Below are positions 14,030 through 57,292 of a DNA stretch of 64,000 bases, piece by piece. Every line of letters starts with the position of its first letter. Positions within the stretch are counted from its first letter, which is position 1. The notes below the pieces were generated by a model. The model made no database searches, was not told the DNA's origin, and was given only the letters and a program-made list of their open reading frames with translations. Position numbers and translations under genes: made by a program. Location: the NCBI GenBank assembly GCA_002898015.1, contig BDTM01000016.1:38535-102534 (forward strand), written 5' to 3'. The stretch is from a bacterium BMS3Bbin03 (lineage in GTDB: Bacteria; Zhuqueibacterota; JdFR-76; BMS3Abin05).

Positions 14030-14875
14030 ATGAAACTTAAACGCATTTTTATAGCAGCCCTGGTGGCCGTTTTTATGGTGGGTACTTTGTCCAATTTCAC
14101 GTATGCACAATCAAAAGCAAAAATGAAATTAGACGATTATAAACTGGAATTGGCAAAATGGCAAAAGACCGAAGCCGATGCCAGGGTTCAGATCGCAGCC
14201 GAGCAAAAGGAAATTGACGCTTTGAAGGGCGAAATTCAAACCACTCAAAATGAAATCGACAAAACTTGGGGTGAGATTTACGCGCTTTTAGGGACAGACA
14301 AAAGTGGTGTTGAAGCCTACAGTCAGTCTTTAAAAGACCTGGAAAACCAGGTGGATGGTCTGAGTGCTCTTTCTTCTGAAGAACTTTTCCAGAAAAGAAA
14401 TGAGATTGAAGCTCTGGAAAAGAAATTGGAAGAGGAAAAGGCAAACAAAATTTCCAATCTCTCGACAATGCAAGATCTGCTTGCCACAGTCGAAGGTAAA
14501 TTGATGCAGGTAAAAAACAAATTGCCCAAATCAATTTATGACATGTACAAAGTCGTTCGTGGTGATTATCTGTGGAAGATTTCCAAAAAAGCCGATATTT
14601 ACGGTGATCCCTACCAATGGATGAAAATTTACACGTACAACCGTGAAATGATCAAGAATCCTAATTTGATCTATCCGGACTGGAATCTGAAAATTGTGCG
14701 TAAAACCGGCCCCAATGAGTATGTGGTGACAAAGGGTGATTATCTGAAAAAGATTGCCGGAACCACATTGGGTGATCCGACGTTGTGGACCAAAATCTAC
14801 GAAGCGAACAAATCACTCATTAAAAACAAAAACTTGATTTATCCTTACGAGGTTTTTGTGATTCCCAAGCAATAG
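14030..14875 (+). CDS. Secreted coiled-coil protein with two C-terminal LysM domains
   Basis: Signal peptide (FIAALVAVFMVGTLSNFTYAQ), a long coiled coil, and two LysM-like units (YKVVRGDYLWKISKK...IYPDWNLKI; YVVTKGDYLKKIAG...IYPYEVFVIP). Confidence 0.8.
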   Translation: MKLKRIFIAALVAVFMVGTLSNFTYAQSKAKMKLDDYKLELAKWQKTEADARVQIAAEQKEIDALKGEIQTTQNEIDKTWGEIYALLGTDKSGVEAYSQSLKDLENQVDGLSALSSEELFQKRNEIEALEKKLEEEKANKISNLSTMQDLLATVEGKLMQVKNKLPKSIYDMYKVVRGDYLWKISKKADIYGDPYQWMKIYTYNREMIKNPNLIYPDWNLKIVRKTGPNEYVVTKGDYLKKIAGTTLGDPTLWTKIYEANKSLIKNKNLIYPYEVFVIPKQ

Positions 14876-14907
14876 ATCATTTCAAAAATAGGTGACCTGC
14901 TTTACAA

Positions 14908-14937
14908 AACCCGTTTCAATTTTTGGAACGGGTTTTT
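14908..14937 (+). terminator. Rho-independent terminator after the LysM gene
   Basis: AACCCGTT (14908-14915) / AACGGGTT (14927-14934) stem, then a T5 run. Confidence 0.65.
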
Positions 14938-14961
14938 GTAATTTTAGGCGTTAAATAACTA

Positions 14962-14990
14962 TTGCAAAAGAAGTAAATTTATTGTATTAT
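14962..14990 (+). promoter_or_regulatory. Sigma-70-type promoter upstream of phoH
   Basis: TTGCAA (14962-14967), a 17-nt spacer, then TG-TATTAT (extended -10, 14983-14990). Confidence 0.5.
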
Positions 14991-15035
14991 TTTAGTAACA
15001 GGTTAACAATATAAAGGAGTTATTGTCCCCAGAGA

Positions 15036-15986
15036 ATGCAAAAGAGATTTTCAATAAAAGGCGTCGATCAATTACAATTGTTGGGGTTTCAAGATGTAAA
15101 TCTTCGATCAATCCAGCAGCGGTTTTCTACAAAAATAATTATTCGGGGTACGGATGTTCTGCTCGACGGGGCGGCTGCCGAAGTCATTCAGGTGGAGAAA
15201 CTCTTTTCGGAATTGATTTTATTGATCAATAGAAATGGAAAAGTCAGCGAAAGAGATCTGGAAACACTCATTTATCTGGTCAAATCAATTAGTCCTGCCA
15301 CAAAAGAAGAAGACCTGAGTTCCGTTATTTTGGGTACAAAGTCAGATTTTATCCGGCCCAAAACAAAAGGCCAATTGGCGTACTACCAGTCTACGCTGAA
15401 AAATGACATCGTTTTTGTGATTGGCCCGGCGGGAACCGGTAAGACCTATTTGGCGGTAGCCATTGCCGTGGCGCATTTAAAGGCTCACGAAGTAAGCCGG
15501 ATCGTATTGGCCCGGCCGGCCGTGGAAGCCGGCGAAAGCCTCGGGTTTTTACCCGGTGATTTTCGTGAAAAGATCGATCCCTATCTGCGTCCCCTTTACG
15601 ATGCGCTTTATGATATGCTTTCCGGCGATAAACTCCGCCAGATGATTGAAAGGGGTGAAATTGAAATTGTGCCGCTGGCCTACATGCGCGGACGAACATT
15701 GAACAACGCATTTGTCATTCTGGATGAAGCGCAAAATACAACCCCCAACCAGATGAAGATGTTTTTAACAAGATTGGGTGTGAGTTCAAAAGCAATCATT
15801 ACCGGTGATATTACGCAGGTGGATCTGCCCGTAAAGCAAAAGTCCGGACTCATCATCATTCAGGATATTCTGAAAGGGATTGAAGGGATTGATTTCGTTT
15901 ATTTGGATGAGAAAGATGTGGTACGGCATCGTCTGGTGCGCGAAATTATTAAAGCTTATGAAGTGTACAATCAAAATTCCGACTAA
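15036..15986 (+). CDS. phoH: PhoH-family ATPase (YbeZ-like)
   Basis: Walker A GPAGTGKTYLAV and DEAQN Walker B. It has the conserved position upstream of ybeY. Confidence 0.9.
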   Translation: MQKRFSIKGVDQLQLLGFQDVNLRSIQQRFSTKIIIRGTDVLLDGAAAEVIQVEKLFSELILLINRNGKVSERDLETLIYLVKSISPATKEEDLSSVILGTKSDFIRPKTKGQLAYYQSTLKNDIVFVIGPAGTGKTYLAVAIAVAHLKAHEVSRIVLARPAVEAGESLGFLPGDFREKIDPYLRPLYDALYDMLSGDKLRQMIERGEIEIVPLAYMRGRTLNNAFVILDEAQNTTPNQMKMFLTRLGVSSKAIITGDITQVDLPVKQKSGLIIIQDILKGIEGIDFVYLDEKDVVRHRLVREIIKAYEVYNQNSD

Positions 15987-15988
15987 AA

Positions 15989-18328
15989 ATGCGATTTTTT
16001 AAACGAAAGAAAATCTCTCAGCCGTCCGGGAAAAGCGGTTCGGTTAAAAATAAATCTTCGGATGAGGAGGGTTCGTGGTTTTCAAAAAACAGAGCCAGAT
16101 TAATCATTCTTCTGGTCTTTGTTATTCTGGTCACACTTTTTTTTCCGTCTCTTGAATTTAAACAATATCTGAATTTCCGTCCCGGAACGATCGCCTACCG
16201 CGATGTGATTGCGCCTTTCACCTTTTACATTTACAAGAGCAAACAGGAACTGAATCGAGATCGCGAAGAAGCCCGCCGGCGGGTTCTTCCGATTTTTCAG
16301 GTTGATCCCTCGGTTGCAGAAAAAGAGCTGGACCGTCTCAATCGCTTTTTTGATGAACTGCGCCTGCTGCGGAAATCCGGTGTATCGGACACCATCCGGA
16401 TTATAGAAATTTTGAGCTTTTGCCGTCGTGAAAATATTATCTTAACGGAAAAAGACGCCCACTTCTTCAATAAATTAGAATTGGCCGTTAACCAAAAATC
16501 ATTTTCCAGTTTTGAAAATGAAATGCAGCAAATCCTTCAGGATATTTACGCCATCGGTGTCATTAATCGATCAAAGTCGGAAATCCGGAAAATCAACCCC
16601 AGAATTTACATCAAGGATAAGGATCAGCATTTCGAAAAGGATTTGAATTATATTTACGACATGAAAGATGCCCGGGAGCGTATCCTTGAAAGGTTTAAGG
16701 CGCGATACCGGACGGCTTCGGATTCCATCCATGCGGCTTACGCATTGACCTCTTCATTATTAAAGCCGAACGTTATTTACGATGCAAAAGAGACGAACCG
16801 CCTGATTCACGAGGCAATTGCCGGTGTTCCGCTTGTGAAGGGGCAGGTCTTGAAGGGTGAAATAATCCTTCAAAAACATCAGCGAATCACGCCGGAACAG
16901 ATCGACGCCCTCCGTTCACTGGAAAAAGCACAAGCCGATAAAAATGCCGAAAGCATCTACTGGGAGTTATTCTCTTTTTACGTGGGCACACTCTTTTTCA
17001 TCTTAATTGCGCTTTTCCCGCTACTGAGTTTCATCTATGTCTATCGCCCCAAAATTTTCAATAATAACAACCATTTGATCATAATTCTGGGTTCGATGCT
17101 CCTGGTGGTGGCGCTTGCATTTTTTGTCCAGCATTATGGAATTACCCGGTACGTGGTGCCCGTGGCGGTCGTCCCGATGATGATTACCTATTATTTTGAC
17201 AATCGTGTGAGCCTGCTTTCCGGAGTCAGCTTGAGCATTCTGGTGGCCGGAATATTCGCAAATGACTTTACGCTGTTGGTGATCTCAATTTTTGTTTCTG
17301 CCGTGGGTGTGGTGGCGGTCGGTGTTTTGAGAGGCCGAAAACGGTTGACCAATTCTGTCTTTTTGATCGGCAGCGCTTATTTTTTTAGCCTTCTGTTTCT
17401 CGGAATCGCGCAGCAGATCCCCATACCGGAGATGGCACGCGATTGGATCGGCGGCCTCCTGAATGGCGTCATTTCGGCTGTTTTGGTGTACGGGCTGCTT
17501 TTGTTGTTTGATTACATCTTCAATGTGTGTTCGGAATATAAGCTTATCGAGTTAAGTGACCTTAGCCATCCGTTATTGAAGATGCTTGCCGTAAGAGCGC
17601 CAGGAACTTACAATCACAGTATTGTGATCAGCAATCTGGTGGAAGCCGCCGGCGAAGCCATTCGAGCCAACAGTCTTTTGGCAAAAGTGGGCGCCTACTA
17701 CCACGACATCGGCAAAATGTACATGCCCGAGTATTTTATTGAAAACCAGCGTTTCGGGAAAAATCCGCATGAAAGTCTGGCGCCGAGGCTCAGCAGTTTA
17801 ATCCTGCAAAATCATGTTAAAAAAGGCCTGGAATTTGCTAATCAGTATCACCTGCCGGCGGCCATTAAGGATTTTATTGCCCAGCACCACGGGACATCGT
17901 TAATGAAATTTTTTTACGAAAAGGCTCTCACGCTGAGCAAGGGGGTTCCGGTTAATGAGGCGGACTTCCGCTACCAGGGGGTCAAACCCCGGACGAGAGA
18001 GACGGGAATTCTGATGTTGGCGGATAATATAGAGGCGTTAACCCGCTCCGTTCACGACATAAATGTGAGTAAAATCAGAAATGCCATTCATTCCGTGGTG
18101 GAAGAAAAACTTCAAGAGGGGCAATTGGATGAGTGTCCCCTCACGATGCGGGAACTTCAGATTATTAGCAAAGCGTTTGAACAGAACTTAATAGGCGTCC
18201 ATCATGCCAGAATTGAATATCCCGGACAGGAGAAAATGATTTCGGGCAAAAAGGCGGCAAAATCCCCGCAGAAGGCGAAAAAATCGCCTGAAAAGAAAGT
18301 TCAAGAGCTTGAAGATAAAGGTATTTAA
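15989..18328 (+). CDS. 7TM-receptor HD-domain phosphohydrolase (PgpH/YqfF-like)
   Basis: Extracellular N-domain, about 7 TM helices, then an HD domain (NHSIVISNL...AYYHDIGKM). Confidence 0.85.
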   Translation: MRFFKRKKISQPSGKSGSVKNKSSDEEGSWFSKNRARLIILLVFVILVTLFFPSLEFKQYLNFRPGTIAYRDVIAPFTFYIYKSKQELNRDREEARRRVLPIFQVDPSVAEKELDRLNRFFDELRLLRKSGVSDTIRIIEILSFCRRENIILTEKDAHFFNKLELAVNQKSFSSFENEMQQILQDIYAIGVINRSKSEIRKINPRIYIKDKDQHFEKDLNYIYDMKDARERILERFKARYRTASDSIHAAYALTSSLLKPNVIYDAKETNRLIHEAIAGVPLVKGQVLKGEIILQKHQRITPEQIDALRSLEKAQADKNAESIYWELFSFYVGTLFFILIALFPLLSFIYVYRPKIFNNNNHLIIILGSMLLVVALAFFVQHYGITRYVVPVAVVPMMITYYFDNRVSLLSGVSLSILVAGIFANDFTLLVISIFVSAVGVVAVGVLRGRKRLTNSVFLIGSAYFFSLLFLGIAQQIPIPEMARDWIGGLLNGVISAVLVYGLLLLFDYIFNVCSEYKLIELSDLSHPLLKMLAVRAPGTYNHSIVISNLVEAAGEAIRANSLLAKVGAYYHDIGKMYMPEYFIENQRFGKNPHESLAPRLSSLILQNHVKKGLEFANQYHLPAAIKDFIAQHHGTSLMKFFYEKALTLSKGVPVNEADFRYQGVKPRTRETGILMLADNIEALTRSVHDINVSKIRNAIHSVVEEKLQEGQLDECPLTMRELQIISKAFEQNLIGVHHARIEYPGQEKMISGKKAAKSPQKAKKSPEKKVQELEDKGI

Positions 18329-45010: not shown

Positions 45011-45026
45011 TGGCACACAGATTGCT
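45011..45026 (+). promoter_or_regulatory. Sigma-54 (-24/-12) promoter
   Basis: TGGCACACAGATTGCT is an exact match to TGGCAC-N5-TTGCW. It lies 120 nt upstream of the ATG at 45146. Confidence 0.7.
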
Positions 45027-45145: not shown

Positions 45146-45436
45146 ATGGGTGCTCAATTGGTATATTTGCCGTTTTTATCCTGGCTATGGTTAACCATCA
45201 TTGCTGTTGTAATCTCTTTGATATGGTGGTTTGCGCTGAACGTTAAAACCGCGGGAGGATATTGGTTTGAATTAGTAATAGCCTGGATCGGTGCCTGGCT
45301 GGGTACGCCTGTTTTTGGGAATTGGGTATGGACACCTAACCATATTTCAATTATTCCGGCCGTTTTAGGTGCAATTGCAGCCATATTTCTTATTGATGGA
45401 TACACCAAAATTATGGCAGCTTGTCACAAAGAATAA
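45146..45436 (+). CDS. GlsB/YeaQ/YmgE-family small membrane protein
   Basis: 96 aa, 3-4 TM segments, Gly-rich helices (VIAWIGAWLGTPVFG; AVLGAIAAIFLIDGY). Strong SD GGGAGGTGA. Confidence 0.65.
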   Translation: MGAQLVYLPFLSWLWLTIIAVVISLIWWFALNVKTAGGYWFELVIAWIGAWLGTPVFGNWVWTPNHISIIPAVLGAIAAIFLIDGYTKIMAACHKE

Positions 45437-48047: not shown

Positions 48048-49568
48048 ATGCTTTTTACGCATTCAAAATCAGGGCGTAAACCATTCAAACGACTGATTTC
48101 CGGCATACAATTTAAAATTGTGATTAGTACCACTTTGGTTGTGGCCGTAGCCGTAGGCGTATCCACCTGGTTTGCAATCAAACTATTAGAACGTCAATTA
48201 ATAGAAAGTACCAAACACAAAGTAAAAACAGCCTGTGAAAGAATTTCCGGTAATATTTCAATGGCGATGGGAAACGGCCATGTCCCAAGTATCCGACATA
48301 CTTTTGCACTGATTCGCTCTTATCCGCATTATAGAGTCCAGATGTATATTACCGACTCGCTGGGCACTGTTCTGATTGCCACTGATAGTCTTCTGGTCGG
48401 CAAAAAGGTCAACATCGGTAAAATAACCCCCAATAGCTCCGGGGTCACGGTTTCCACAGAACGTGTTCAAAGATCAGATGTTGTGGTGGCCCGCCAGCTA
48501 ATTTTAAATAAGCCGGCATGTTATCACTGCCACGATCGCAGGAAAAAGATTAACGGAATCCTGCAAGTAAGGGTTGCACTTTCGGAATTCATGCAGGAAT
48601 TTTCACTATTTCGAAAACTCATGATCGGAAACGGGATTGTTATTTTTTTAGTGATGACTGTGACGCTGAGTTTGCTTCTTGGATTAATCGTCGGCCGGCC
48701 CTTAAAGAAAATGTCGCAGGCGATGGGAAAAGTCGAAGCGGGTGATTTGAGCGTACGGGTAAAGTTTAATCGCCGGGATGAAATTGGTCTCCTCGGAAAG
48801 AGTTTTAATGCAATGGTACAACGACTCGCCAATTCAATACATCAGATCACAAGCAGCCATCAGAATGAGCTGCAGCACGCGGACCGGCTGGCGGCATTGG
48901 GTGAACTGGCAGCCGGCATTGCCCATGAAATTCGTAATCCTCTCGCCGGAATTTCAGGTGCCGTTCAGGTGCTGGCAAGCGAGTTGGACAAGGACGACCC
49001 GCACCGCGAAGTGATGGACGAGATTCAGAAGGAGATTAAACGCCTCGATAATTCCCTGAAGAATTTTCTTGCTTATGCCCGGCCCAGCGAACCGAAGTTT
49101 CAGCCGTTTGATATTCACGATGTCATTGAACGTGCCTTGACGCTTTGTCTTCGCAGCGGGCAGTTTTCGGGCATTAAATTAATCCGGGATTTCCGGATTC
49201 ATCAGAAAAAACTCATCTTTGACCCTGCCCTGATGCAGCAGGTATTCATGAACATTATTTTAAACTCACTGCAGGCCATGAACCACTCCGGCCAATTAAG
49301 CATAATCACCCGGCTTCGAACGGATGTTCCCAATATGAATAAAGCCATTGAAATCGTTATTGCCGATACCGGCCCCGGGATTCCGTCGGAAGATTTAAAT
49401 AAAATATTTCGGCCTTTTTTCACGTCGAAGCATCAGGGTACCGGTTTGGGGTTAACCATCGCCTGGCGGATTGTGGCGCAGCACGGGGGTTCCGTATCGG
49501 TTGAAAGTGAGTTGGGAAAAGGGACCCGGTTTATCATTATTTTCCCATATGCGGAATCTTCAAATTAG
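48048..49568 (+). CDS. Sensor histidine kinase (periplasmic loop with CXXCH, HAMP, HisKA, HATPase_c)
   Basis: Two TM segments flank a ~150-aa loop containing CYHCH (48519-48533). HAMP follows, then H-box AHEIRNPL, N-box NIILNSLQAM, G1 DTGPGI and G2 GTGLGL. Confidence 0.9.
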   Translation: MLFTHSKSGRKPFKRLISGIQFKIVISTTLVVAVAVGVSTWFAIKLLERQLIESTKHKVKTACERISGNISMAMGNGHVPSIRHTFALIRSYPHYRVQMYITDSLGTVLIATDSLLVGKKVNIGKITPNSSGVTVSTERVQRSDVVVARQLILNKPACYHCHDRRKKINGILQVRVALSEFMQEFSLFRKLMIGNGIVIFLVMTVTLSLLLGLIVGRPLKKMSQAMGKVEAGDLSVRVKFNRRDEIGLLGKSFNAMVQRLANSIHQITSSHQNELQHADRLAALGELAAGIAHEIRNPLAGISGAVQVLASELDKDDPHREVMDEIQKEIKRLDNSLKNFLAYARPSEPKFQPFDIHDVIERALTLCLRSGQFSGIKLIRDFRIHQKKLIFDPALMQQVFMNIILNSLQAMNHSGQLSIITRLRTDVPNMNKAIEIVIADTGPGIPSEDLNKIFRPFFTSKHQGTGLGLTIAWRIVAQHGGSVSVESELGKGTRFIIIFPYAESSN

Positions 49569-49578
49569 AGTAAATCGT

Positions 49579-50949
49579 ATGACGAAGGGCAAAGTACTTA
49601 TTGTCGATGACGACAAGCTGATCTGTTGGTCTTTGGAGCAGGTTTTAAACAAAGAGGGCTATGATGTCACATTTGTTCACCTTGCCAATGATGCCTTATC
49701 GGAGATTTTTAAGGAGCCTCCGGATATTCTCCTGCTGGATCTTTTGCTTCCGGATTTGTCCGGGGTAGAGGTTTTAAAACGCCTCAAAAAAAAGGACTAT
49801 CACATCCCCGTGCTGGTAATTTCCGCGATGGCCACCGTTGATTCTGCCGTTCAGGCCATGAAACTGGGAGCCTATGATTACATTAGCAAGCCTTTTAATA
49901 TGGATGCGGTAAAGCTTGCCATTCAAAAGGCATTGGAAGTTGACCATCTGCGCAGTGAAGTGGATTATCATCGGACCAGGGAAAGCCGAATTTATGGTTT
50001 TAATAATTTTGTGAGCGGTCATTCTTCTATCCGTGAACTTCTTCGGATGGCAAGAAGGGTGGCCTCCAGCGAAGCTCCAACCATACTGATTCAGGGCGAA
50101 AGCGGAACGGGCAAAGATCTTCTGGCCCGGGTGATACACTATCAGAGCAAGCGGGCAAATTCACCGTTGGTAGAGCTGAATTGTACGGCTGTACCTGAAA
50201 CGCTGTTGGAAAGCGAACTGTTCGGACATGAGCAGGGTGCCTTTACAGATGCCAAGAAGATGAAACGCGGTTTATTTGAAATTGCAAACAAGGGGACAAT
50301 CCTGCTCGAAGAAATTGGTGAAATACCCCAACCCATTCAGGTAAAACTGCTCAAGGTTTTGGAAGACCGGCGTCTGCGCCGGGTCGGAGGCCTGAAAAAC
50401 ATTGCGATCGATGTTAGAGTTATTGCCACCACGAACCGGGACCTGATTGCAGAAACAAAAGCCGGAAATTTCAGGACAGATCTTTTTTATCGTTTGAATG
50501 TCATTACGCTTTTAATTCCGCCGTTACGAGAGCGCAAAGGAGATATCTTACTGCTTACCAAATATTTTCTCAACCGGTATAATCATCAATTTCACCGGAA
50601 TATTAAAAGTCTCTCAAAGGAGGCTGAAAAGCTTTTAATCAACTACAATTGGCCTGGAAATATTCGCCAATTAAAAAATGTTTTGGAACGGATTATGATT
50701 TTGGAGGATACGGAAGAATTACTGCCGGATCATCTTCCTTATGAAATTCAATCCTACACGGGAGATGAAGCCCATGCTCAGGCATTCATAAAACTCCCGC
50801 ACATTGGCTTAAAACTTGGCGAGGTAGAAAAAAATCTAATCAACCAGGCGCTGGATTATACTGAAGGGAATCAGGTGCAGGCGGCCAAATTACTGGGAAT
50901 CAGCCGGGATGCCCTGCGTCGAAAAATGATAAAATTCAAGTTGATGTAA
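49579..50949 (+). CDS. Sigma-54-dependent response regulator (NtrC family: REC + AAA+ + Fis-type HTH)
   Basis: REC (IVDDD, LLLDLLLPD), GESGTGKDLLA Walker A, GAFTDA (GAFTGA variant), and the C-terminal HTH QVQAAKLLGISRDALRRKM. The track start 49471 overlaps the kinase. Confidence 0.9.
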   Translation: MTKGKVLIVDDDKLICWSLEQVLNKEGYDVTFVHLANDALSEIFKEPPDILLLDLLLPDLSGVEVLKRLKKKDYHIPVLVISAMATVDSAVQAMKLGAYDYISKPFNMDAVKLAIQKALEVDHLRSEVDYHRTRESRIYGFNNFVSGHSSIRELLRMARRVASSEAPTILIQGESGTGKDLLARVIHYQSKRANSPLVELNCTAVPETLLESELFGHEQGAFTDAKKMKRGLFEIANKGTILLEEIGEIPQPIQVKLLKVLEDRRLRRVGGLKNIAIDVRVIATTNRDLIAETKAGNFRTDLFYRLNVITLLIPPLRERKGDILLLTKYFLNRYNHQFHRNIKSLSKEAEKLLINYNWPGNIRQLKNVLERIMILEDTEELLPDHLPYEIQSYTGDEAHAQAFIKLPHIGLKLGEVEKNLINQALDYTEGNQVQAAKLLGISRDALRRKMIKFKLM

Positions 50950-50998
50950 AAATGGCATATTTGTTGCACTTTTCGCTGTAAAAAAAGCCGTTTTTAAA

Positions 50999-51418
50999 AT
51001 GAAAATTTTACTCATTGAAGACGAAAAATTACTGCTTTGGTCTTTAAAGAGATCCTTAGCCAGGGAGGGCTTCGAGGTCATTGCTGAGGATAGCGGGGAA
51101 AAAGCATTCGGATGGCTTCCTAAATGTACGTTTGACTGGGTTATCACGGATTACCGGCTGCCGGGGATCAACGGCCTGGAAGTATTGCGTGAGGTGAAGC
51201 AGTGCCAGCCTAATGTGAAGACAATGATGCTTTCGGCTTTCGGCTCTCCTGAACTTCTAAAAGATTTAGAACAGGACGGAATCCTTTGTTTTTTGCCAAA
51301 GCCATTTAGTATTGATGAGCTCATTAAGACTCTTCGGGAAACATCATTGAACACGGTCAAAAAGAATCGTTTTTCGCTGCCGCTTTTATTGGTTCTCGGC
51401 TTCGCTTTTATTGGATGA
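50999..51418 (+). CDS. Single-domain response regulator (receiver only)
   Basis: LIEDE, VITDYRLPGINGLE, MLSAFG and LPKPF. The last ~25 aa are hydrophobic. Confidence 0.8.
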   Translation: MKILLIEDEKLLLWSLKRSLAREGFEVIAEDSGEKAFGWLPKCTFDWVITDYRLPGINGLEVLREVKQCQPNVKTMMLSAFGSPELLKDLEQDGILCFLPKPFSIDELIKTLRETSLNTVKKNRFSLPLLLVLGFAFIG

Positions 51419-51424
51419 CAATTG

Positions 51425-51462
51425 TGTGCGAATTGACACAGTGTCCTGTGCGGATACACACA
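51425..51462. promoter_or_regulatory. Tandem 16-mers TGTGCGAATTGACACA / TGTGCGGATACACACA (candidate upstream activator sites)
   Basis: 13/16 identical, offset 22 nt, and each is a TGTG-N8-CACA dyad. They lie about 130-165 bp upstream of the -24/-12 element at 51589. Confidence 0.45.
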
Positions 51463-51588
51463 TTTGGCGGACATTTGTTTTTATAATTACCGGTTCGGGC
51501 CGGCCGGAAATGAAAATTAAATCGTAAACTAATAAAATAACAATTGTTTTATTATTGATAATTGTGTATCTTAAAATAAGCTATTTCA

Positions 51589-51604
51589 TGGCATTACTTT
51601 TGCG
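51589..51604 (+). promoter_or_regulatory. Sigma-54 (-24/-12) promoter of the NHL/cytochrome cluster
   Basis: TGGCATTACTTTTGCG. GG (51590-1) and GC (51602-3) have canonical 12-nt spacing. Confidence 0.6.
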
Positions 51605-51720
51605 ATATTGAGATGAAAATGGGAAGTATCGGCGTTACATTTGGAATTCAGGAATGATCAGGAATAAAACAAAAGGTCACTGTTTTGGTGAAAAATCCAT
51701 TCGATATTTCGGTTAATAAA

Positions 51721-52821
51721 ATGATACGGGGGTCTGTATTTTTCATCTTAATGGCTACACTGATTACGATGACTCTGGGCTGCGCCGGGACACGTCCTTC
51801 GGGGACTAAAAATCCGGCGGATTTTGTATGGCCGCTCCCTCCGGACCAACCCAGAATACGTTTTGTCCGAAGCATTCATTCCGAAATGGCTTTGGGACAA
51901 CGAAAACGGTCCCTTGCGAGGAAGATATTTGAAAGCTTATTTGGCCGGCCCCGTTTGATCGCTCTGAGAAAACCATTGTCCGTGCATGTCGACAAACGCG
52001 GCCGCCTTTTGGTGGTGGATACCGGCTGGCATAAAGTTCTGATTTTTGACTTTGCCAACAAAAAAATGAGTTTTTTGGGAAATAGCGGAAGGGGCATGCT
52101 GCTGAATCCGTTGGGGGTGACTTCCGATGAAGAAGGTAATATCTATGTGACCGATGCCGACGGCAAGCGGGTCATTGTTTACAATTCCGAAGGCGCCTAT
52201 TTGAGTGCATTTGGGGGGCAAAATATCCTGGTTCGTCCTTCCGGAATTGCGGTCAATTCAAAACTTGGCTATATTTACGTGGTCGATACGTGGGCCCATC
52301 AAGTAAAAGTGTTTGATCGGAAACGGGACAATCTGCTGTTCACCATCGGCAAACAGGGTAAAAAGTTTAAAGAAGTAATCAAAGGCAGTCTCGATGAAAT
52401 CTGGAACCGGGGCAGTGAGCCGGGGGAATTTCGTTTTCCCACAAATATTGCGATTGGACCCCAGGGTCATATCTATGTAGTCGACACCATGAATTTTCGC
52501 GTTCAAGTTTTTGATTCGCAGGGGAAATTTATCAGGAGTTTTGGTCAAATTGGAAATACTCCCGGGACGTTTTCCCGGCCCAAAGGAATTGGACTGGACA
52601 GCGAAGGCCATATTTATGTAGCCGACGCTGCTTTTAATAATGTGCAGATCTTTAACCAGGATGGAAAGATTCTGCTTGCTTTCGGTAACTTCGGCTCCGG
52701 TCTGGCTGATCTGCGACTTCCTGCAGGCCTTTGTGTCGACATTCGCCAACGGATTTATGTAGTTGATCAGCTTAATCATAGGGTACAGGTCTATCAATAT
52801 CTGGCTAAGAAGGGATCTTAA
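51721..52821 (+). CDS. NHL-repeat six-bladed beta-propeller protein, probable lipoprotein
   Basis: Signal peptide ending LITMTLGC. Six repeats of the form P.G[IV]A.D..G.IYV.D..N.R[VI]QVF. An alternative GTG start lies at 51685. Confidence 0.85.
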   Translation: MIRGSVFFILMATLITMTLGCAGTRPSGTKNPADFVWPLPPDQPRIRFVRSIHSEMALGQRKRSLARKIFESLFGRPRLIALRKPLSVHVDKRGRLLVVDTGWHKVLIFDFANKKMSFLGNSGRGMLLNPLGVTSDEEGNIYVTDADGKRVIVYNSEGAYLSAFGGQNILVRPSGIAVNSKLGYIYVVDTWAHQVKVFDRKRDNLLFTIGKQGKKFKEVIKGSLDEIWNRGSEPGEFRFPTNIAIGPQGHIYVVDTMNFRVQVFDSQGKFIRSFGQIGNTPGTFSRPKGIGLDSEGHIYVADAAFNNVQIFNQDGKILLAFGNFGSGLADLRLPAGLCVDIRQRIYVVDQLNHRVQVYQYLAKKGS

Positions 52822-52875
52822 AGATGATGTTGATGGACACTTATAATAATAATTCTACCAAAGGGAGGTGAAAAA

Positions 52876-53580
52876 ATGAAGAAAATTTTTGTTCTATTTG
52901 GCGCCCTTGTTCTTACGTTCAGTCTTGTATGGCAAGGGAATAGTTATGCCCAATTTGGAAACAAAGTTATGGACACGCCGCATAATTTACGTAAAGCTTC
53001 ATCAATGGGCATGCCTCTTACGGATTGGGGCGGAATTTGTGTATACTGTCACACCCCCCATAATAACAATACGGCAATTGAGGCGCCTTTATGGAACCGC
53101 AGCACACCGACGGGTCCATATACCATGTACAGCAGTCCATCGATTGATATGACAATCGCCAGCTCGCCGCAGGGTGTTTCCCTGGCGTGTTTATCATGTC
53201 ATGACAATACCATTGGACTTGATCAGATCATTAATGTGCCTGTTTCTAGTTCGAGCAGTGCTTCAGGGACAACCATTAATGCCTGTTCTCAGAGTTGTCA
53301 TACCAGTTCAAATCACGTGGCTGGTTTGAATTTTGAGGGCACAAACATTGGTACGGATTTAAGGAACGATCATCCGATTTCGGTTACTTATGATCCAAGC
53401 GTTGATCCGAAATTTCATCCCGCCTCAAACGGTAAAGTTGGGAATTTGCCCCTGTATGGATCGAATCATGACCAGGTGGAATGTGCAACCTGTCATAATC
53501 CGCATGACGAAACGAATCGTCCGTTTTTGAGGATAAGTAATGCCAATAGTGCCCTATGTTTAACCTGCCACGATATTTAA
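52876..53580 (+). CDS. Secreted multihaem c-type cytochrome (234 aa; 4 CXXCH + 1 CX3CH)
   Basis: Signal peptide ...GNSYA/QF. Haem motifs are CVYCH, CLSCH, CSQSCH, CATCH and CLTCH, with seven additional His. Strong SD AGGGAGGTGA. Confidence 0.9.
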   Translation: MKKIFVLFGALVLTFSLVWQGNSYAQFGNKVMDTPHNLRKASSMGMPLTDWGGICVYCHTPHNNNTAIEAPLWNRSTPTGPYTMYSSPSIDMTIASSPQGVSLACLSCHDNTIGLDQIINVPVSSSSSASGTTINACSQSCHTSSNHVAGLNFEGTNIGTDLRNDHPISVTYDPSVDPKFHPASNGKVGNLPLYGSNHDQVECATCHNPHDETNRPFLRISNANSALCLTCHDI

Positions 53581-53663
53581 TTTTCTTGGCAGATTTACGT
53601 TTGAATAAATTCTACGTCGGAACATTAACCCGTAAATGGGTATTGAACCGGAGCAAAAGTACT

Positions 53664-53700
53664 AAAGGGGTGAGGTTTCGCCTCACCCCTTTTAATTTTT
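53664..53700 (+). terminator. Strong rho-independent terminator inside the cluster
   Basis: GGGGTGAGG (53667-75) / CCTCACCCC (53681-89), loop TTTCG, flanked by AAA...TTTTAATTTTTT. Confidence 0.8.
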
Positions 53701-53716
53701 TAAAAAGGTTTTACGG

Positions 53717-54694
53717 ATGGGAAAACAAAAGTTAAGATTCACTTTGGTGCTGCCCTGGATCGGCTTATTTCTATTGATTCTGTCAACCGGCGCGCAGGCC
53801 GCAAAAAAGGTCGTGGCGACGGTTAATGGTGCAGACATCACGAATGATGCGCTTCTGGCCGGGATTAATCAAAAACTCCCGCTGATTTCCATTCACAAAA
53901 GTGTGTCCGAGCAGAAATATAAAGAAATCCGCCGCCAGGTGCTGAATCAATTAATTGATGAAGAGCTTTTGTATCAGGAGGCGAAGAGACAAAAATTCAA
54001 GGCGGACAAGACTGAATTAAATCGACATATTGCGTATATGAAAAAGGCTTATCCGACTAAAAAGACTTTTCGGGAGCAATTGGCCAAAACCGGCCTCAGT
54101 TACAGGCAATGGATCGCCAAATTGAAAAGGCGCTTATTGATCAACCAGGTTCGGCAGCGGGAAATTGTGGACAAGGTTACGATCACCGACCGGGATGTGC
54201 GCCGGTATTACCGGAAAAATAAAAAGAAATTTATTGTACCGCAGCGTTTGAAAATTTTGCATATTCTTATTTCGGTGGAACCGGGTGCAATGGAAGTCGG
54301 CTGGAAAGCAGGATTGAAAAAGGCCCAAATGGTTTATAAAAATATTATGGCGGGGGAAGACTTTTCCAAAGCTGCCAAAGAGTATTCGGCTGACTCTACC
54401 AGCCGCGCACGCGGGGGAGATATTGGGTGGGTTCATCTTGGACAACTGCTTCCTGAATTGGATCAAGTTGCCCGCCGGATGAAAATTGGGGAAGTAAGCC
54501 ATCCCATTCGTACCATATACGGCTATCATATTATTAAATTGGTGGATCACAAACCACGCAAACAATTGTCGTTTAGTGAAATTGATATAAAAGAATTAAA
54601 AGAGAAGTTGCGCAGGAAACGGATTGAAGAGCGCAGGAATGAATTACTCACAAAGCTTCGGGCACAGGCCAAGATCCGTATTATGAATCCCTGA
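53717..54694 (+). CDS. Periplasmic parvulin-type peptidyl-prolyl isomerase (SurA/PrsA-like)
   Basis: Signal peptide (...STGAQAAKK), an N-terminal chaperone-like region, and a parvulin core (ILHILI...FSKAAKEYSADSTSRARGGDIGWV...GYHIIKL). Confidence 0.85.
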   Translation: MGKQKLRFTLVLPWIGLFLLILSTGAQAAKKVVATVNGADITNDALLAGINQKLPLISIHKSVSEQKYKEIRRQVLNQLIDEELLYQEAKRQKFKADKTELNRHIAYMKKAYPTKKTFREQLAKTGLSYRQWIAKLKRRLLINQVRQREIVDKVTITDRDVRRYYRKNKKKFIVPQRLKILHILISVEPGAMEVGWKAGLKKAQMVYKNIMAGEDFSKAAKEYSADSTSRARGGDIGWVHLGQLLPELDQVARRMKIGEVSHPIRTIYGYHIIKLVDHKPRKQLSFSEIDIKELKEKLRRKRIEERRNELLTKLRAQAKIRIMNP

Positions 54695-54735
54695 ATTTGT
54701 GATTTGCGAGATTCGCCGCGCGCAGGTAATTGAAA

Positions 54736-55323
54736 ATGAAATTTTTTTTTTCGAAATTCCGGTTCTCGAACGGCTTATTTTTTGTCTTATTTTTCAGCGG
54801 CCTGTTTTTAGTGCAGTGCAGTCCCGCTGCCCGGCACCGGGTGTTAAGCTTTTTTTTTGACGGCGTTCCGCCATTAAAACAATCGCCCGCACTGGCCCGT
54901 AAAAATAATGCGGGACAGTCGGCATTATCGCTTAATACGGCAAATGCCGGAAGCCTTTCTACAGCGCAGCCTGTTATGTATTATCACCCGCAAACGGGTG
55001 AAAACCGGTGTGATGCTTGCCATAATGTAAGCCAGTCTTATCATCTTCTGGCGCCTCCGGACAGCCTTTGTCTGATATGTCATGACGACAAAACGGATGC
55101 GAAATATGTTCATCCTCCGGTAGAAGAGGGGGAGTGCCTGGATTGTCATAATCCCCATGGAACTAAAAATAAATATCTATTATTAAAAACCGGACAGGCA
55201 CTCTGTTTTCAGTGTCATGATGAATCGGAAATCAAGAATACGGAACACAGAGTGATCGGAAAAGAGGCCTGTACGGTATGCCATAATCCTCATAATTCAG
55301 ATAATCAGTATTTTTTGAGGTAA
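54736..55323 (+). CDS. Membrane-anchored or lipoprotein pentahaem c-type cytochrome
   Basis: Hydrophobic N-terminus ending LFLVQC. Haem motifs are CDACH, CLICH, CLDCH, CFQCH and CTVCH, with repeated H-x(n)-CxxCHNPH pattern. An alternative TTG start lies at 54730. Confidence 0.85.
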   Translation: MKFFFSKFRFSNGLFFVLFFSGLFLVQCSPAARHRVLSFFFDGVPPLKQSPALARKNNAGQSALSLNTANAGSLSTAQPVMYYHPQTGENRCDACHNVSQSYHLLAPPDSLCLICHDDKTDAKYVHPPVEEGECLDCHNPHGTKNKYLLLKTGQALCFQCHDESEIKNTEHRVIGKEACTVCHNPHNSDNQYFLR

Positions 55324-55327
55324 CGTG

Positions 55328-57292
55328 ATGCGGGGTCTGACCTTAAAAAAAATAATCGGTTGTACACTGCTCTTTGTTCTGATCGCCGGCACGTCCGCCC
55401 CGTTGTCTGCCCAGCAGGTGGCGATGTTTCGCATGACCAAATTAACAGGCTCATTGAAGCTGAGATTTATGGACGAGCGCCGAATAAAACCCCAATATTC
55501 AAAAAGACCCTTCTTTAAAGAAACCCTGGAGTTACGCAATAAAGGATTTATTATTAGTCCGAACGTTTTCCTTTTTCAATGGGTCGGCAATCTGAGTCTC
55601 TCCCAGGAACACTATGTTTACACGAATTTTGAGCAGTATTCGAAAGCACGATTTCTAAATCATTATCTCTCAGGTTCATTTTTTAACAGAAGTGCTTATC
55701 CAACCTCATTTGTGTGGAGTAAACTTAACAATGTATTAAATACGGATTATGGCGTGCGTACTTCGTATGATATTAACCGGTATCAAGCGAGCACTATCTT
55801 CAATAAAAAGTTTTTGCCTTCAACCCTCAGGATAGGCATAGAAGAAATGCGCGAGGAATGGTCGAGGGAAGGCTGGGCAACCCGGCTGAATCAATTGCGA
55901 AGAACGATTCAATATGACGCCCATCGAGGGAATAAATCGAATATTAGTCTCAGTTATGACTTGCTGGATATCCGGGACCGCATTTACGCAGATCGAAGCT
56001 ACGTATCCCATAACGCCCATTTAAATTTTATTCGTTACTTTGGCCGTGATTCAAGTCAGACCTGGAATGGTGTCTTTCGCTTTTATCGCCGAAAAGGACT
56101 TCGAAATTATCAGAATATCAGGACAATTCAGACCATGCAACTGAAACACAACTATGGATTTTCCAGTCGATATCGATACAGTGTTTCCAGCATACATTTA
56201 AAAAATTATTCGTCTTTATTGCAAACGGCGTTTTTTACCCTAAATCATCAACTCTTTTCCAGTCTAAACACTACGGTTGGGGCCGGGGGGACCTACGGCA
56301 AATTAACGGACGGCAAGGAATCCTCATACGCATTTAACGGGGGTGTGAATTACATTAAACATGTGCCGCTTTCCGGGAATCTGCGTATTGTGTACAACCG
56401 CGCCTATTCCATAGAAGATCGCCACCTGAAGGGCACGTTACAAACAGTTGTACGAGAACGCCATCTGTTAGGAACCGACCTTCCCATATTTTTGGATGAA
56501 CGAAACATCCTTATTTCCACAATTGTGGTCTATGATGAACGGGGAGAGATCATTTATGAAGAAGGCGAAAACAAAGATTACATTGTTCGTGTTATCGATG
56601 ATTTAGTTGAGATTTATCGCAATCCTTTGGGACGAATACAGGGGAATCAAAGCATATTGGTTGATTATCAGTTTCGAACGCTGCCTTCTATGAGGTATTC
56701 AACAAACACGACTATTTTTAATATAGGCCTCAGTTTTAAATGGATATCGTTTTACTATCGAGTCAATCATCATTATCAGAATTTATTGAGGGGTTCATTG
56801 GAGAAGGAATCTCTTCTTCAAAACATGCTTATTAAAACAATCGGTTTGAAAATGTCCCGGCGCGGGAATACCTGGGGCACTTCGCTTTTTGTTGAACAGA
56901 AGATTCGGGAATCAAATTTAGTGGCTTACCGTTTATTGGAAGTGCGCAATATTTCTTTTCTGCAACTGAACCGGGTGATGACGCTCTCCTCCAAATTTAC
57001 GCTGTCTCTGTTTGATTACACTCATGTAAATCGAAATATCAATATTTACAGTTATCGTCCGGAGCTCCAATGGTATCCAACAAACCTGTTTTCAATAAAA
57101 GTTTATGGGGAACTGCGCATTCGGCGGGATTCTGCAAGTTATGAACAATTTATTCTCGATTTGGCCGGATTTGCTCAGTGGTATTGGAGAGTGATGAAAT
57201 TGCGATTATCGTATCATCGCCAGACGTGGAGAATAGGCCCTCGCCAGCTAAAAGTCAATCGTTTCACTGTGGACTTTGAACGGTACTTTTAA
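55328..57292 (+). CDS. Large outer-membrane beta-barrel protein (about 654 aa)
   Basis: Signal peptide (LLFVLIAGTSAPLSAQQ). Alternating hydrophobic/aromatic beta-strand pattern is rich in Y/R/N/S, and the C-terminus ...VDFERYF ends in Phe, as typical of OMPs. Confidence 0.75.
   Translation: MRGLTLKKIIGCTLLFVLIAGTSAPLSAQQVAMFRMTKLTGSLKLRFMDERRIKPQYSKRPFFKETLELRNKGFIISPNVFLFQWVGNLSLSQEHYVYTNFEQYSKARFLNHYLSGSFFNRSAYPTSFVWSKLNNVLNTDYGVRTSYDINRYQASTIFNKKFLPSTLRIGIEEMREEWSREGWATRLNQLRRTIQYDAHRGNKSNISLSYDLLDIRDRIYADRSYVSHNAHLNFIRYFGRDSSQTWNGVFRFYRRKGLRNYQNIRTIQTMQLKHNYGFSSRYRYSVSSIHLKNYSSLLQTAFFTLNHQLFSSLNTTVGAGGTYGKLTDGKESSYAFNGGVNYIKHVPLSGNLRIVYNRAYSIEDRHLKGTLQTVVRERHLLGTDLPIFLDERNILISTIVVYDERGEIIYEEGENKDYIVRVIDDLVEIYRNPLGRIQGNQSILVDYQFRTLPSMRYSTNTTIFNIGLSFKWISFYYRVNHHYQNLLRGSLEKESLLQNMLIKTIGLKMSRRGNTWGTSLFVEQKIRESNLVAYRLLEVRNISFLQLNRVMTLSSKFTLSLFDYTHVNRNINIYSYRPELQWYPTNLFSIKVYGELRIRRDSASYEQFILDLAGFAQWYWRVMKLRLSYHRQTWRIGPRQLKVNRFTVDFERYF

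Follow-up and report, generated by a model that had tools for sequence, protein, structure and literature searches.

Does a compact five-gene cluster in the genome of bacterium BMS3Bbin03 encode an apparatus that carries electrons across the outer membrane and, if so, does it act as a filament or as a conduit embedded in the membrane? The cluster lies in a 64-kb stretch of contig BDTM01000016.1 (64,000 nucleotides; hereafter the window) and comprises genes for an NHL-propeller lipoprotein, a small secreted multihaem cytochrome (hereafter the subunit), a parvulin-type peptidyl-prolyl isomerase (PPIase), a second, anchored cytochrome and a large outer-membrane β-barrel. A sequence-only reading of the window had proposed an extracellular electron transfer (EET) or cytochrome-filament module. 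This proposal is borne out by the homology of the subunit to the nanowire protein OmcE, and by that of the NHL lipoprotein and the second cytochrome to components of Geobacter-type omcE clusters. We consider it probable, though by no means assured, that the cluster is a self-contained OmcE-type cytochrome-filament (nanowire) module that moves electrons between the periplasm and the outside.

The OmcE-family cytochrome and its extra haem motif

The subunit is 234 amino acids long and has a signal peptide, four CXXCH motifs (at C55, C105, C203 and C228) and one CX3CH motif (C137–H142), just as the sequence-only reading had described it. When compared with PDB sequences by phmmer, it matched 7tfs_A (E=4e-26) and 9yuq_N (E=6e-25) over nearly its full length. 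The title of 7TFS in Foldseek is "Cryo-EM of the OmcE nanowires from Geobacter sulfurreducens"; 9YUQ is entered as a 218-aa "putative multiheme cytochrome c" with 16 chains and is presumably the bundle of OmcE filaments that Petersen et al. describe for Desulfuromonas soudanensis (bioRxiv 10.1101/2025.10.22.684050). Identity to Geobacter-type OmcE proteins is 33–34% by BLASTP. A structural model of the subunit obtained with AlphaFold2 (AF2; mean predicted local distance difference test score (pLDDT) 81, predicted template-modelling score 0.74) had 7TFS as its sole PDB match in Foldseek (E=2e-8, TM-scores 0.53/0.60, 34% identity). Thus, the 234-aa cytochrome is a homologue of the OmcE nanowire subunit in both sequence and fold. 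The family to which it belongs comprises 6251 clusters at 90% identity, and its nearest named relatives stem from Calditrichaeota metagenome-assembled genomes (MAGs).

Conservation within this family follows the haem ligands. In alignments of 20 and 76 sequences, the former including both solved OmcE proteins, the four CXXCH motifs (C55/C58/H59, C105/C108/H109, C203/C206/H207, C228/C231/H232) and four further histidines (H36, H62, H166, H210) are invariant. The latter, together with the histidines of the four CXXCH motifs, are the predicted eight axial ligands of four bis-His haems.

In one respect the window protein departs from OmcE, of which exactly four haems are expected: it has a fifth haem motif. 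Among 117 full-length sequences (the window protein and its 116 top homologues) an extra motif occurs at one and the same alignment position in 61, as CX3CH in 48, CXXCH in 12 and CX4CH in one of them; it is absent from the other 56 and from both solved OmcE proteins. The interchangeable spacing at a fixed alignment position argues for a real haem site. Moreover, a methionine at the position of M46 is found in 97% of the five-motif proteins as opposed to 0% of the four-haem ones, and Q26, G28, I134, F153, G155 and R215 co-vary with the fifth motif in the same way. Based on this pattern, haem 5 is probably ligated by His142 and Met46; it is probably also surface-exposed. By its sequence the window protein belongs to a five-haem OmcE-like subgroup.

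OmcE-like proteins with five haems have been noted before. Petersen et al. describe such proteins from uncultured bacteria, predict an exposed extra haem and properties between those of OmcE and OmcZ, and regard them as a possible new nanowire family (bioRxiv 10.1101/2025.10.22.684050). The window subunit resembles these proteins in its OmcE-like length, in a four-haem core with one additional motif and in its origin from uncultured bacteria, which belong to diverse phyla. They were, however, sought via an extra CxxCH motif, whereas the window-type site is CX3CH in 48 of 61 members; counting CxxCH motifs would therefore score most such proteins as tetrahaem. Likewise, the co-variation of Met46 and the full operon context (PPIase, feeder cytochrome, barrel and regulon) have no mention in the sections of the preprint considered here. 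The window protein is a concrete five-haem example in which C137, C141, H142 and M46 offer themselves as mutational targets for tuning wire conductivity or surface reactivity.

Partner proteins and conservation of the gene order

The five genes lie on the plus strand between 51685 and 57292, separated by 54, 136, 35 and 1 bp, in keeping with the co-directional, tightly spaced arrangement noted earlier (Table 1). The open reading frame (ORF) of the NHL lipoprotein spans 378 codons from a TTG at 51685; from the likely true start, the protein begins with MIRGSVFFILMATLITMTLGC and contains a lipobox (…TMTLGC). Its six blades are readable directly in the amino acid sequence. Over its full length it is 31–35% identical to the NHL lipoproteins that flank omcE in Geobacter-type loci (E=1e-53 to 1e-64). 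The third gene product has the SurA_N and parvulin domains that had been assigned to it, and its position corresponds to that of UetB (see below).

The second cytochrome has the 197 aa and five CXXCH motifs stated before; the anchoring proposed for it agrees with a conserved N-terminal cysteine, which makes it a probable lipoprotein. Its counterpart in Geobacter-type omcE clusters is cytochrome A, with 38% identity (E=7e-26). It also matches DmsE and GSU2203-type decahaem families as well as PDB entry 6r2q chain A (E=1e-10), which we take to be MtrA of the MtrCAB complex. Orthologues share the signature C-x3-RHRVLxFFFDGVP and have 5, 9, 11 or 21 haem motifs, a variation that suits a periplasmic connector of variable length.

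The barrel gene is located 1.7 kb downstream of the subunit gene in the same operon, and its 655-aa product has no Pfam, NCBIfam or PDB sequence match. The AF2 model, which was built on an alignment of 10 sequences, agrees with the large barrel with C-terminal ERYF inferred previously. It contains 30 long antiparallel strands, as compared with 26 in MtrB, which start at about residue 35 directly after the signal peptide, and lacks a plug domain. Foldseek returned only generic large barrels such as TonB-dependent receptors and LptD (TM-scores 0.26–0.35, root-mean-square deviation >10 Å). An assignment as TonB-dependent receptor, FadL or ordinary porin, each of which would have spoken against an EET function, was rejected on the grounds of the missing Pfam/NCBIfam signature, the missing plug and the 30 strands; TonB-dependent receptors have a plug, a TonB box and 22 strands, FadL has 14 and porins 16–18. 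Homology to MtrB was also rejected, as no PDB sequence matched and the 50 best structural matches did not include MtrB.

The barrel represents a large family. An indexed protein search, first with the single sequence and then with a profile, recovered only 10 relatives; an exhaustive profile search exposed 2475 clusters at 50% identity with E≤1e-3, of which 1200 had E≤1e-30, and nearly all members are 590–730 aa long. Across this wide family, residues are too poorly conserved for functional ones to be picked out. The window barrel has an insert of about 60 residues (383–441; nucleotides 56471–56647) between strands 18 and 19, which is modelled with lower confidence and by strand parity would lie on the periplasmic side. 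It is the most conserved stretch among close relatives, with D418, Y419, R432 and I438 being invariant, and is present in about 55–60% of the wider family. It might plug the barrel or serve for docking on the periplasmic side. Given its size, the absence of a Pfam model, the roughly 30 predicted strands and the near-universal NHL partner, the family may represent a widespread outer-membrane machine.

Relatedness to the barrel of Geobacter-type omcE clusters is harder to establish. Neither jackhmmer started from either side nor BLASTP linked the two types. Local profile alignment with hhalign gave 72% probability over 79 C-terminal columns; in global mode the values were 97.5% and a score of 61 over 594 columns, compared with 0–7 for reversed or column-shuffled controls. 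Remote homology of the two barrels is thus probable but unproven.

The arrangement of the cluster is conserved. Among the homologous loci compared with the window (designated L001 to L092), L001, on a contig labelled Calditrichaeota, as well as L002, L005 (from Calditrichaceae) and L006 (candidate division KSB1) share with it the order NHL, OmcE-like cytochrome, PPIase, cytochrome, barrel; the L005 contig begins at the OmcE-like gene, which places the NHL gene outside its coverage. The kinase and activator genes described below are found upstream of the clusters of close relatives wherever the sequence reaches. A lack of synteny in related genomes, named at the outset as an observation that would count against the proposal, was therefore not seen. 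With gene-for-gene conservation in Calditrichota and KSB1 and a core that recurs across many phyla, the five-gene arrangement is far beyond chance.

A scan of one genome per species yielded at least 589 OmcE-like loci in Calditrichota, KSB1, Schekmanbacteria, Nitrospirota, Gemmatimonadota, Acidobacteriota, Campylobacterota, Planctomycetota, Gamma-, Beta- and Alphaproteobacteria, Zixibacteria and Ignavibacteriota/Bacteroidota. Neighbours were counted in the 47 loci with enough flanking sequence. An NHL gene adjoins the OmcE-like gene in 35 of them, and a member of the window's barrel family, as detected with an iterated profile, lies downstream in 26, always on the same strand. A PPIase gene is present within 4 kb downstream in 19 loci from several phyla, and all three partners occur together in 11. 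The likely range of such wires would thereby extend to Calditrichota, KSB1, Gemmatimonadota and other phyla. A literature search on EET or OmcE in Calditrichota returned nothing specific.

Three Geobacter-type loci recovered from metagenomes served for comparison. The OmcE protein of L086 is 81% identical to that of G. sulfurreducens, and those of L088 and L089 are 51% identical to it. L089 consists of resB/ccsB, two multihaem cytochrome genes, an NHL lipoprotein gene, omcE, a second NHL lipoprotein gene, a gene for a 766-aa protein with the C-terminus …FRKTF and glycosyltransferase genes; in L086 the genes follow one another in this way, except that there is only one NHL gene and the barrel has 746 aa. 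Both layouts agree with the published omcE region of Desulfuromonadia. The resB/ccsB-like maturation genes (4294–6523) and glycosyltransferase genes (14567–17736) of L089 bracket its omcE locus, as published. L043 (Trichloromonas) had been considered as a Desulfuromonadales reference and was dropped because the typical neighbours were absent.

The surroundings of the homologous loci vary. L003 (600–8450) is neighboured by genes for a molybdopterin oxidoreductase, a 4Fe-4S protein, NrfD and c-type cytochromes, and L004 (5846–8495) by cox genes encoding a haem-copper oxidase; this difference hints that the module couples to different respiratory chains, perhaps in different directions. In L002 (1–5338) and L006 (1350–4851), loci of the KSB1/Calditrichota type, an NHL protein is encoded upstream on the opposite strand, divergently from the kinase gene. 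The L002 set includes a von Willebrand factor A-domain protein and a protein of 2902 aa that has cadherin repeats and paired-CXXCH motifs, and could represent a surface adhesin-cytochrome; the divergent NHL gene of L006 is accompanied by a 698-aa ORF with weak similarity to OmcE.

Table 1. Features of the cluster and its upstream region in the window (TM, transmembrane segments; UAS, upstream activating sequence).
Feature	Position	Strand	Evidence or remark
Sensor histidine kinase: two TM, periplasmic sensor with CXXCH at C158, HAMP, HisKA, HATPase	48048..49568	+	Pfam
NtrC-type σ54 activator: receiver, AAA+ Sigma54_activat, HTH_8	49585..50949	+	Sigma54_activat E=2e-63
σ54-type -24/-12 motif TGGCATATTTGTTGCA, exact	50953..50968	+	Pattern search; putative function only
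Stand-alone response-regulator receiver	50999..51418	+	Pfam Response_reg E=1e-22; conserved in L001
Candidate enhancer (UAS), TGTGCG / CGCACA-type inverted repeats	51422..51462	+	Read from sequence
σ54 -24/-12 promoter element TGGCATTACTTTTGCG	51589..51604	+	Pattern search and cross-locus conservation
NHL six-bladed β-propeller lipoprotein	51685..52821	+	Pfam NHL E=7e-37; probable ATG 51721
OmcE-family secreted cytochrome, predicted nanowire subunit	52876..53580	+	PDB 7tfs_A E=4e-26
Terminator-like hairpin 3' of subunit gene	53664..53692	+	13-bp stem, -22.5 kcal/mol, T-run
SurA-like chaperone / parvulin PPIase, periplasmic	53717..54694	+	Pfam SurA_N_3 and Rotamase
Five-haem cytochrome, probable lipoprotein, paired-CXXCH (MtrA-like) modules	54730..55323	+	Pfam Paired_CXXCH_1 E=4e-27
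Outer-membrane β-barrel, 30 strands, C-terminal ERYF	55325..57292	+	AF2 pLDDT 81.3

Predicted transcriptional control

Upstream of the cluster, Pfam and NCBIfam domains verified the genes previously recognized as those of a haem-motif kinase, an NtrC-type activator and a lone receiver. Flanking genes outside this region encode housekeeping functions (an S9 peptidase, LytB, a carbamoyltransferase, phosphofructokinase and an inositol monophosphatase); with the regulatory cassette directly upstream, the unit is therefore delimited to 48048–57292. The only ORFs with CXXCH motifs in the window are those of the kinase and the two cytochromes, and this survey ruled out a second cytochrome module elsewhere in the window.

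Motifs of the -24/-12 type are not enriched in the window (four found, 4.6 expected by chance). What makes the element at 51589, already spotted in the initial reading, credible is its conserved position: in the window and in L001, L002, L006 and L011, TGGCA-N6-TTGC precedes the NHL gene by 70–130 bp, which covers all five examined loci in which the activator or its orthologue is encoded upstream of the cluster. The candidate enhancer is located about 130–170 bp upstream of this promoter. A similar element occupies the equivalent position in L001, and related repeats are present in L002, L006 and L011, which is consistent with a putative enhancer function of 51422–51462.

The periplasmic CXXCH motif of the kinase is kept in all five orthologues with complete N-termini (L002, L006, L008, L060 and L082). 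Its conservation suggests that the kinase is a haem-based redox sensor. A pairing of this kind is also listed for G. sulfurreducens: a σ54 regulator and a kinase (GSU2506 and GSU2507) have locus numbers consecutive to GSU2505, which lies beside omcS (GSU2504) (PMC10599522).

Two further exact σ54-type motifs deserve mention. The one at 50953 ends 30 bp before the receiver start codon, and the receiver itself may be under σ54/activator control, which would create a feedback loop. The other, TGGCACACAGATTGCT at 45011–45026, is followed at a distance of about 120 bp by an ORF (45146–45436) whose hydrophobic product of 96 aa has no Pfam match.

A second level of control may reside between the subunit and the PPIase genes, where a GC-rich hairpin is located. 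Hairpins of -20 to -27 kcal/mol occupy the equivalent place in 11 of 14 loci (including the window itself, L001, L002, L005, L006, L020, L024, L031 and the Geobacter-type L086), and that of L089 has -19.8 kcal/mol. Only 3% of random 130-nt segments of the window reach -20 kcal/mol. The hairpin sequences are unrelated between loci; it is their position that is conserved. In pilus operons such an arrangement is found after the genes of major subunits. The conserved hairpin suggests that the cell requires more of the cytochrome than of the accessory proteins, and by analogy it would attenuate read-through or stabilize the upstream transcript.

Relation to named systems and models of function

The view that the cluster and its regulatory cassette match no named system turned out to be wrong, as the omcE and uet clusters each describe it in part. 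The omcE cluster consists of propeller lipoproteins, multihaem cytochromes, OmcE and a large barrel, and nanowire-competent OmcE homologues are defined by a nearby large β-barrel and a β-propeller lipoprotein (bioRxiv 10.1101/2025.10.22.684050). Both of these defining neighbours are present in the window. As compared with the reference clusters (G. sulfurreducens GSU0618 region, PDB 7TFS; D. soudanensis DSOUD_2954, PDB 9YUQ), the window has a homologous subunit in which the eight haem ligands and the fold are kept, a homologous NHL lipoprotein gene directly upstream, a homologous MtrA-like multihaem cytochrome, a large downstream barrel ending in an aromatic residue and a terminator-like hairpin after the subunit gene. 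It differs by having five rather than four haem motifs in the subunit, a barrel of 655 instead of 746–766 aa and a PPIase. No PPIase gene was seen in L086 or L089, both of Geobacter type. Unlike the omcE cluster, it has a dedicated haem-kinase/NtrC/σ54 cassette, belongs to another phylum (Calditrichota-like) and lacks adjoining resB/ccsB or glycosylation genes; enzymes encoded in the cluster are therefore unlikely to glycosylate the subunit.

The uet cluster of Tenderiales has the order tetrahaem UetA, PPIase UetB and barrel UetC, the latter with 28 predicted strands and a pore of about 5 nm, and further comprises the c7 trihaem cytochromes UetD, UetE and UetG, the cupredoxin UetF, the NHL proteins UetH and UetI and the undecahaem cytochrome UetJ (bioRxiv 10.1101/2022.05.06.490989). 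It also occurs in Gallionella. Judged by gene order and description, the window shares with it the succession of cytochrome, PPIase, (cytochrome) and barrel as well as an NHL gene, which is, however, located upstream rather than downstream; UetJ, the c7 trihaem proteins and UetF have no counterpart in the window. Uet-like loci of Gallionellaceae, Chromatiales, Thiohalomonadaceae, Burkholderiales and others encode an OmcE-family cytochrome, then a PPIase and then a protein of 570–800 aa ending in …RRF or …RQF; in L047, L050, L054, L058, L059, L063 and L078 this is a barrel ending in RRF or similar. Further downstream such loci have an NHL gene, or two of them, and encode a large cytochrome, which has 11 CXXCH motifs in 10 of 14 cases checked. 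The barrels of L058 (2.5e-12) and L063 (1e-18) match the profile of the window's barrel. A recurrent pair after the barrel, composed of an NHL protein and a cytochrome of 590–720 aa with 11 CXXCH motifs and one CX3–4CH motif, resembles UetI/UetJ and is found in L007, L019, L020, L024, L028, L032, L046, L064, L075 and L092; the window and its closest relatives are devoid of it.

Taken together, the omcE, uet and window clusters look like variants of one module. Their shared core appears to be an OmcE/UetA-family cytochrome, an NHL lipoprotein and a large barrel, with the window looking like a minimal form that has the PPIase and lacks the undecahaem cytochrome. Two other systems show a more limited likeness. 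MtrCAB and Pcc/Ext conduits also combine a periplasm-facing multihaem cytochrome with a dedicated large outer-membrane barrel, and the window's second cytochrome has paired-CXXCH modules in common with 6r2q chain A. On the other hand, the window barrel shows no relationship to MtrB in sequence or in specific structural features, there is no MtrC/OmcB-type surface decahaem cytochrome, and the outer component comes from a filament-forming family. The osc (omcS-companion) cluster for OmcS nanowires is summarized as providing a dedicated folding factor, OscH, the secretion components OscEFG and a porin-like pathway (PMC13194489; bioRxiv 10.1101/2025.10.22.684050). It resembles the window cluster in this concept and in the σ54 regulator and kinase on the omcS side; the window lacks an OmcS homologue.

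Clusters of the omcE and uet kinds are already known, and OmcE-like proteins with five haems were flagged in 2025; the following features distinguish the present cluster: the predicted CX3CH/Met fifth haem site, the single propeller and single five-haem feeder cytochrome, the integral PPIase, the 30-strand barrel model of a large unannotated family, the conserved haem-kinase/σ54 regulon, and the occurrence in a phylum that Petersen et al. do not list.

Taking into account these data, we propose that a nanowire module would operate as follows. The kinase would bind haem in the periplasm, sense the redox state there and phosphorylate the NtrC-type activator, which in turn would drive σ54-dependent transcription from 51589. 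The subunit would be made in excess, with the hairpin limiting read-through into the accessory genes or stabilizing the upstream transcript in the manner of a pilus operon. After Sec export, the subunit would be loaded with haem, the OmcE-type core of four bis-His haems being supplemented by a fifth at the CX3CH motif. By analogy to the OmcE filaments of Geobacter and Desulfuromonas, the SurA-like PPIase may hold the subunit, which is rich in coil, in a state fit for assembly while it is in the periplasm, the NHL lipoprotein may help with assembly or docking at the outer membrane, and subunits may polymerize through or on the 30-strand barrel to form an extracellular haem wire. The five-haem MtrA-like lipoprotein cytochrome would take over electrons from carriers in the periplasm and pass them on at the barrel, where the wire has its base. 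Electrons might flow either outward, reducing minerals or a partner, or inward, being taken up from reduced minerals.

Several points weigh against such a module. The conserved haem ligands fit a monomer equally well, and AF2 models of monomers cannot decide on polymerization. The barrel is only remotely related, at the profile level, to that of the Geobacter omcE cluster, and the window has one propeller and one feeder cytochrome where the published minimal omcE cluster has two of each. Ligation by Met46 and the roles of the hairpin, the PPIase and the NHL lipoprotein are all deductions. Moreover, for Uet, which among the named systems with a PPIase is the closest, the authors favoured a porin-cytochrome conduit and viewed polymers as a mere possibility (bioRxiv 10.1101/2022.05.06.490989), and the physiological need for OmcE and OmcS filaments is disputed even in Geobacter (PMC13194489; PMC11077965).

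With respect to the direction of electron flow, inward operation is possible but on the whole rather unlikely. The module would then take up electrons from reduced minerals (sulfides, Fe(II)) or a partner, as proposed for Uet, which is compatible with either a filament or a conduit. Near-identical proteins from hydrothermal or massive-sulfide-type MAGs (e.g. 'bacterium BMS3Abin05') and the many homologous loci in lithotrophic lineages (Gallionellaceae, Sulfurimonas, Chromatiales, Nitrospirota) fit this idea, as do the cox genes adjoining L004 and the higher potential that established haem chemistry leads one to expect of a His/Met-ligated fifth haem. On the other hand, no respiratory or carbon-fixation genes indicative of lithoautotrophy are present within the window, the characterized OmcE filaments are from metal reducers, and cultured Calditrichota are organoheterotrophs.

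The main alternative to a filament, which we judge unlikely, is a non-polymerizing porin-cytochrome conduit of the Mtr, Pcc or Uet style, in which the barrel would house the five-haem cytochrome and the OmcE-like protein would be a monomeric surface cytochrome. The resemblance of the second cytochrome to 6r2q chain A and to decahaem families fits such a conduit, and if the fifth haem is solvent-exposed, this would be appropriate for a reductase or oxidase acting as the terminal component. The order cytochrome-PPIase-barrel equals that of uetA-uetB-uetC, for which a UetC pore with an inserted cytochrome and an extracellular UetA were proposed (bioRxiv 10.1101/2022.05.06.490989). By contrast, all structurally solved members of the OmcE family are filaments, and the undecahaem cytochrome that defines Uet is missing from the window cluster. 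The 30-strand barrel model also exceeds the 26-strand MtrB, to which neither a sequence link nor a match among the top 50 structures was found, and the conserved terminator after the small cytochrome gene suggests a large excess of this protein over the barrel.

Finally, the idea of ordinary periplasmic respiratory or detoxification cytochromes next to an unrelated nutrient porin and a housekeeping chaperone is very improbable: small multihaem cytochromes, SurA-like PPIases and outer-membrane barrels are each common and the barrel lacks an annotated family, but there is no catalytic subunit in or next to the cluster with its housekeeping flanks, the cytochrome is specifically of the OmcE family, and the barrel, with no plug or TonB-dependent signature and more strands than porins and FadL, co-occurs with OmcE-like genes across phyla, always downstream and on the same strand.

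Returning to the nanowire module, it is tempting to speculate, albeit tentatively and with more doubt than confidence, that the cluster is a minimal self-regulated kit for a hybrid wire. Such a wire would combine an insulated OmcE-type core with one exposed, higher-potential His/Met haem per subunit, making it 'leaky' like OmcZ. Assembly would resemble a chaperone-usher pathway, with the SurA-type PPIase as chaperone, the NHL lipoprotein as adaptor and the 30-strand barrel as both usher and anchor, and the haem-binding kinase would read the redox state of the periplasm or the wire and switch the kit on. One ancient module would then have been elaborated in two ways, as omcE clusters in Desulfuromonadia and as uet clusters in lithotrophs. 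If true, this would unify the omcE and uet systems. The apparent continuity between them joins the literatures on metal reduction and electron uptake, which have hitherto barely been connected.

Export, assembly and anchoring of cytochrome nanowires are regarded as an open question (bioRxiv 10.1101/2025.10.22.684050; PMC12307469). The omcE genes of Geobacter lie amid dozens of cytochrome and glycosylation genes, which makes genetic data hard to interpret. The unit described here consists of five structural genes and its own three-gene regulator on 9 kb and is conserved gene for gene in a separate phylum. Its compactness renders the question of nanowire assembly directly testable: the unit could be transplanted to a heterologous host and used to determine which parts are necessary and sufficient for filament formation.

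The taxonomic origin of the window is reflected inconsistently in public records. Source labels of proteins identical or nearly identical to those of the window conflict ('Bacteroidetes bacterium' versus 'bacterium BMS3Abin05'); the latter label is borne by a Lon protease that falls into one cluster at 90% identity with the Lon encoded in the window. The nearest named relatives are labelled 'Calditrichaeota bacterium', and the lineage classification looks unsettled. The DNA seems to stem from an uncultured bacterium of hydrothermal habitats with ties to Calditrichota. At the start of the window and distant from the cluster, two large secreted tetratricopeptide-repeat proteins of 980 and 1557 aa are encoded in tandem (502–3444 and 3602–8275), the larger of which contains a YfiO/BamD-like segment.

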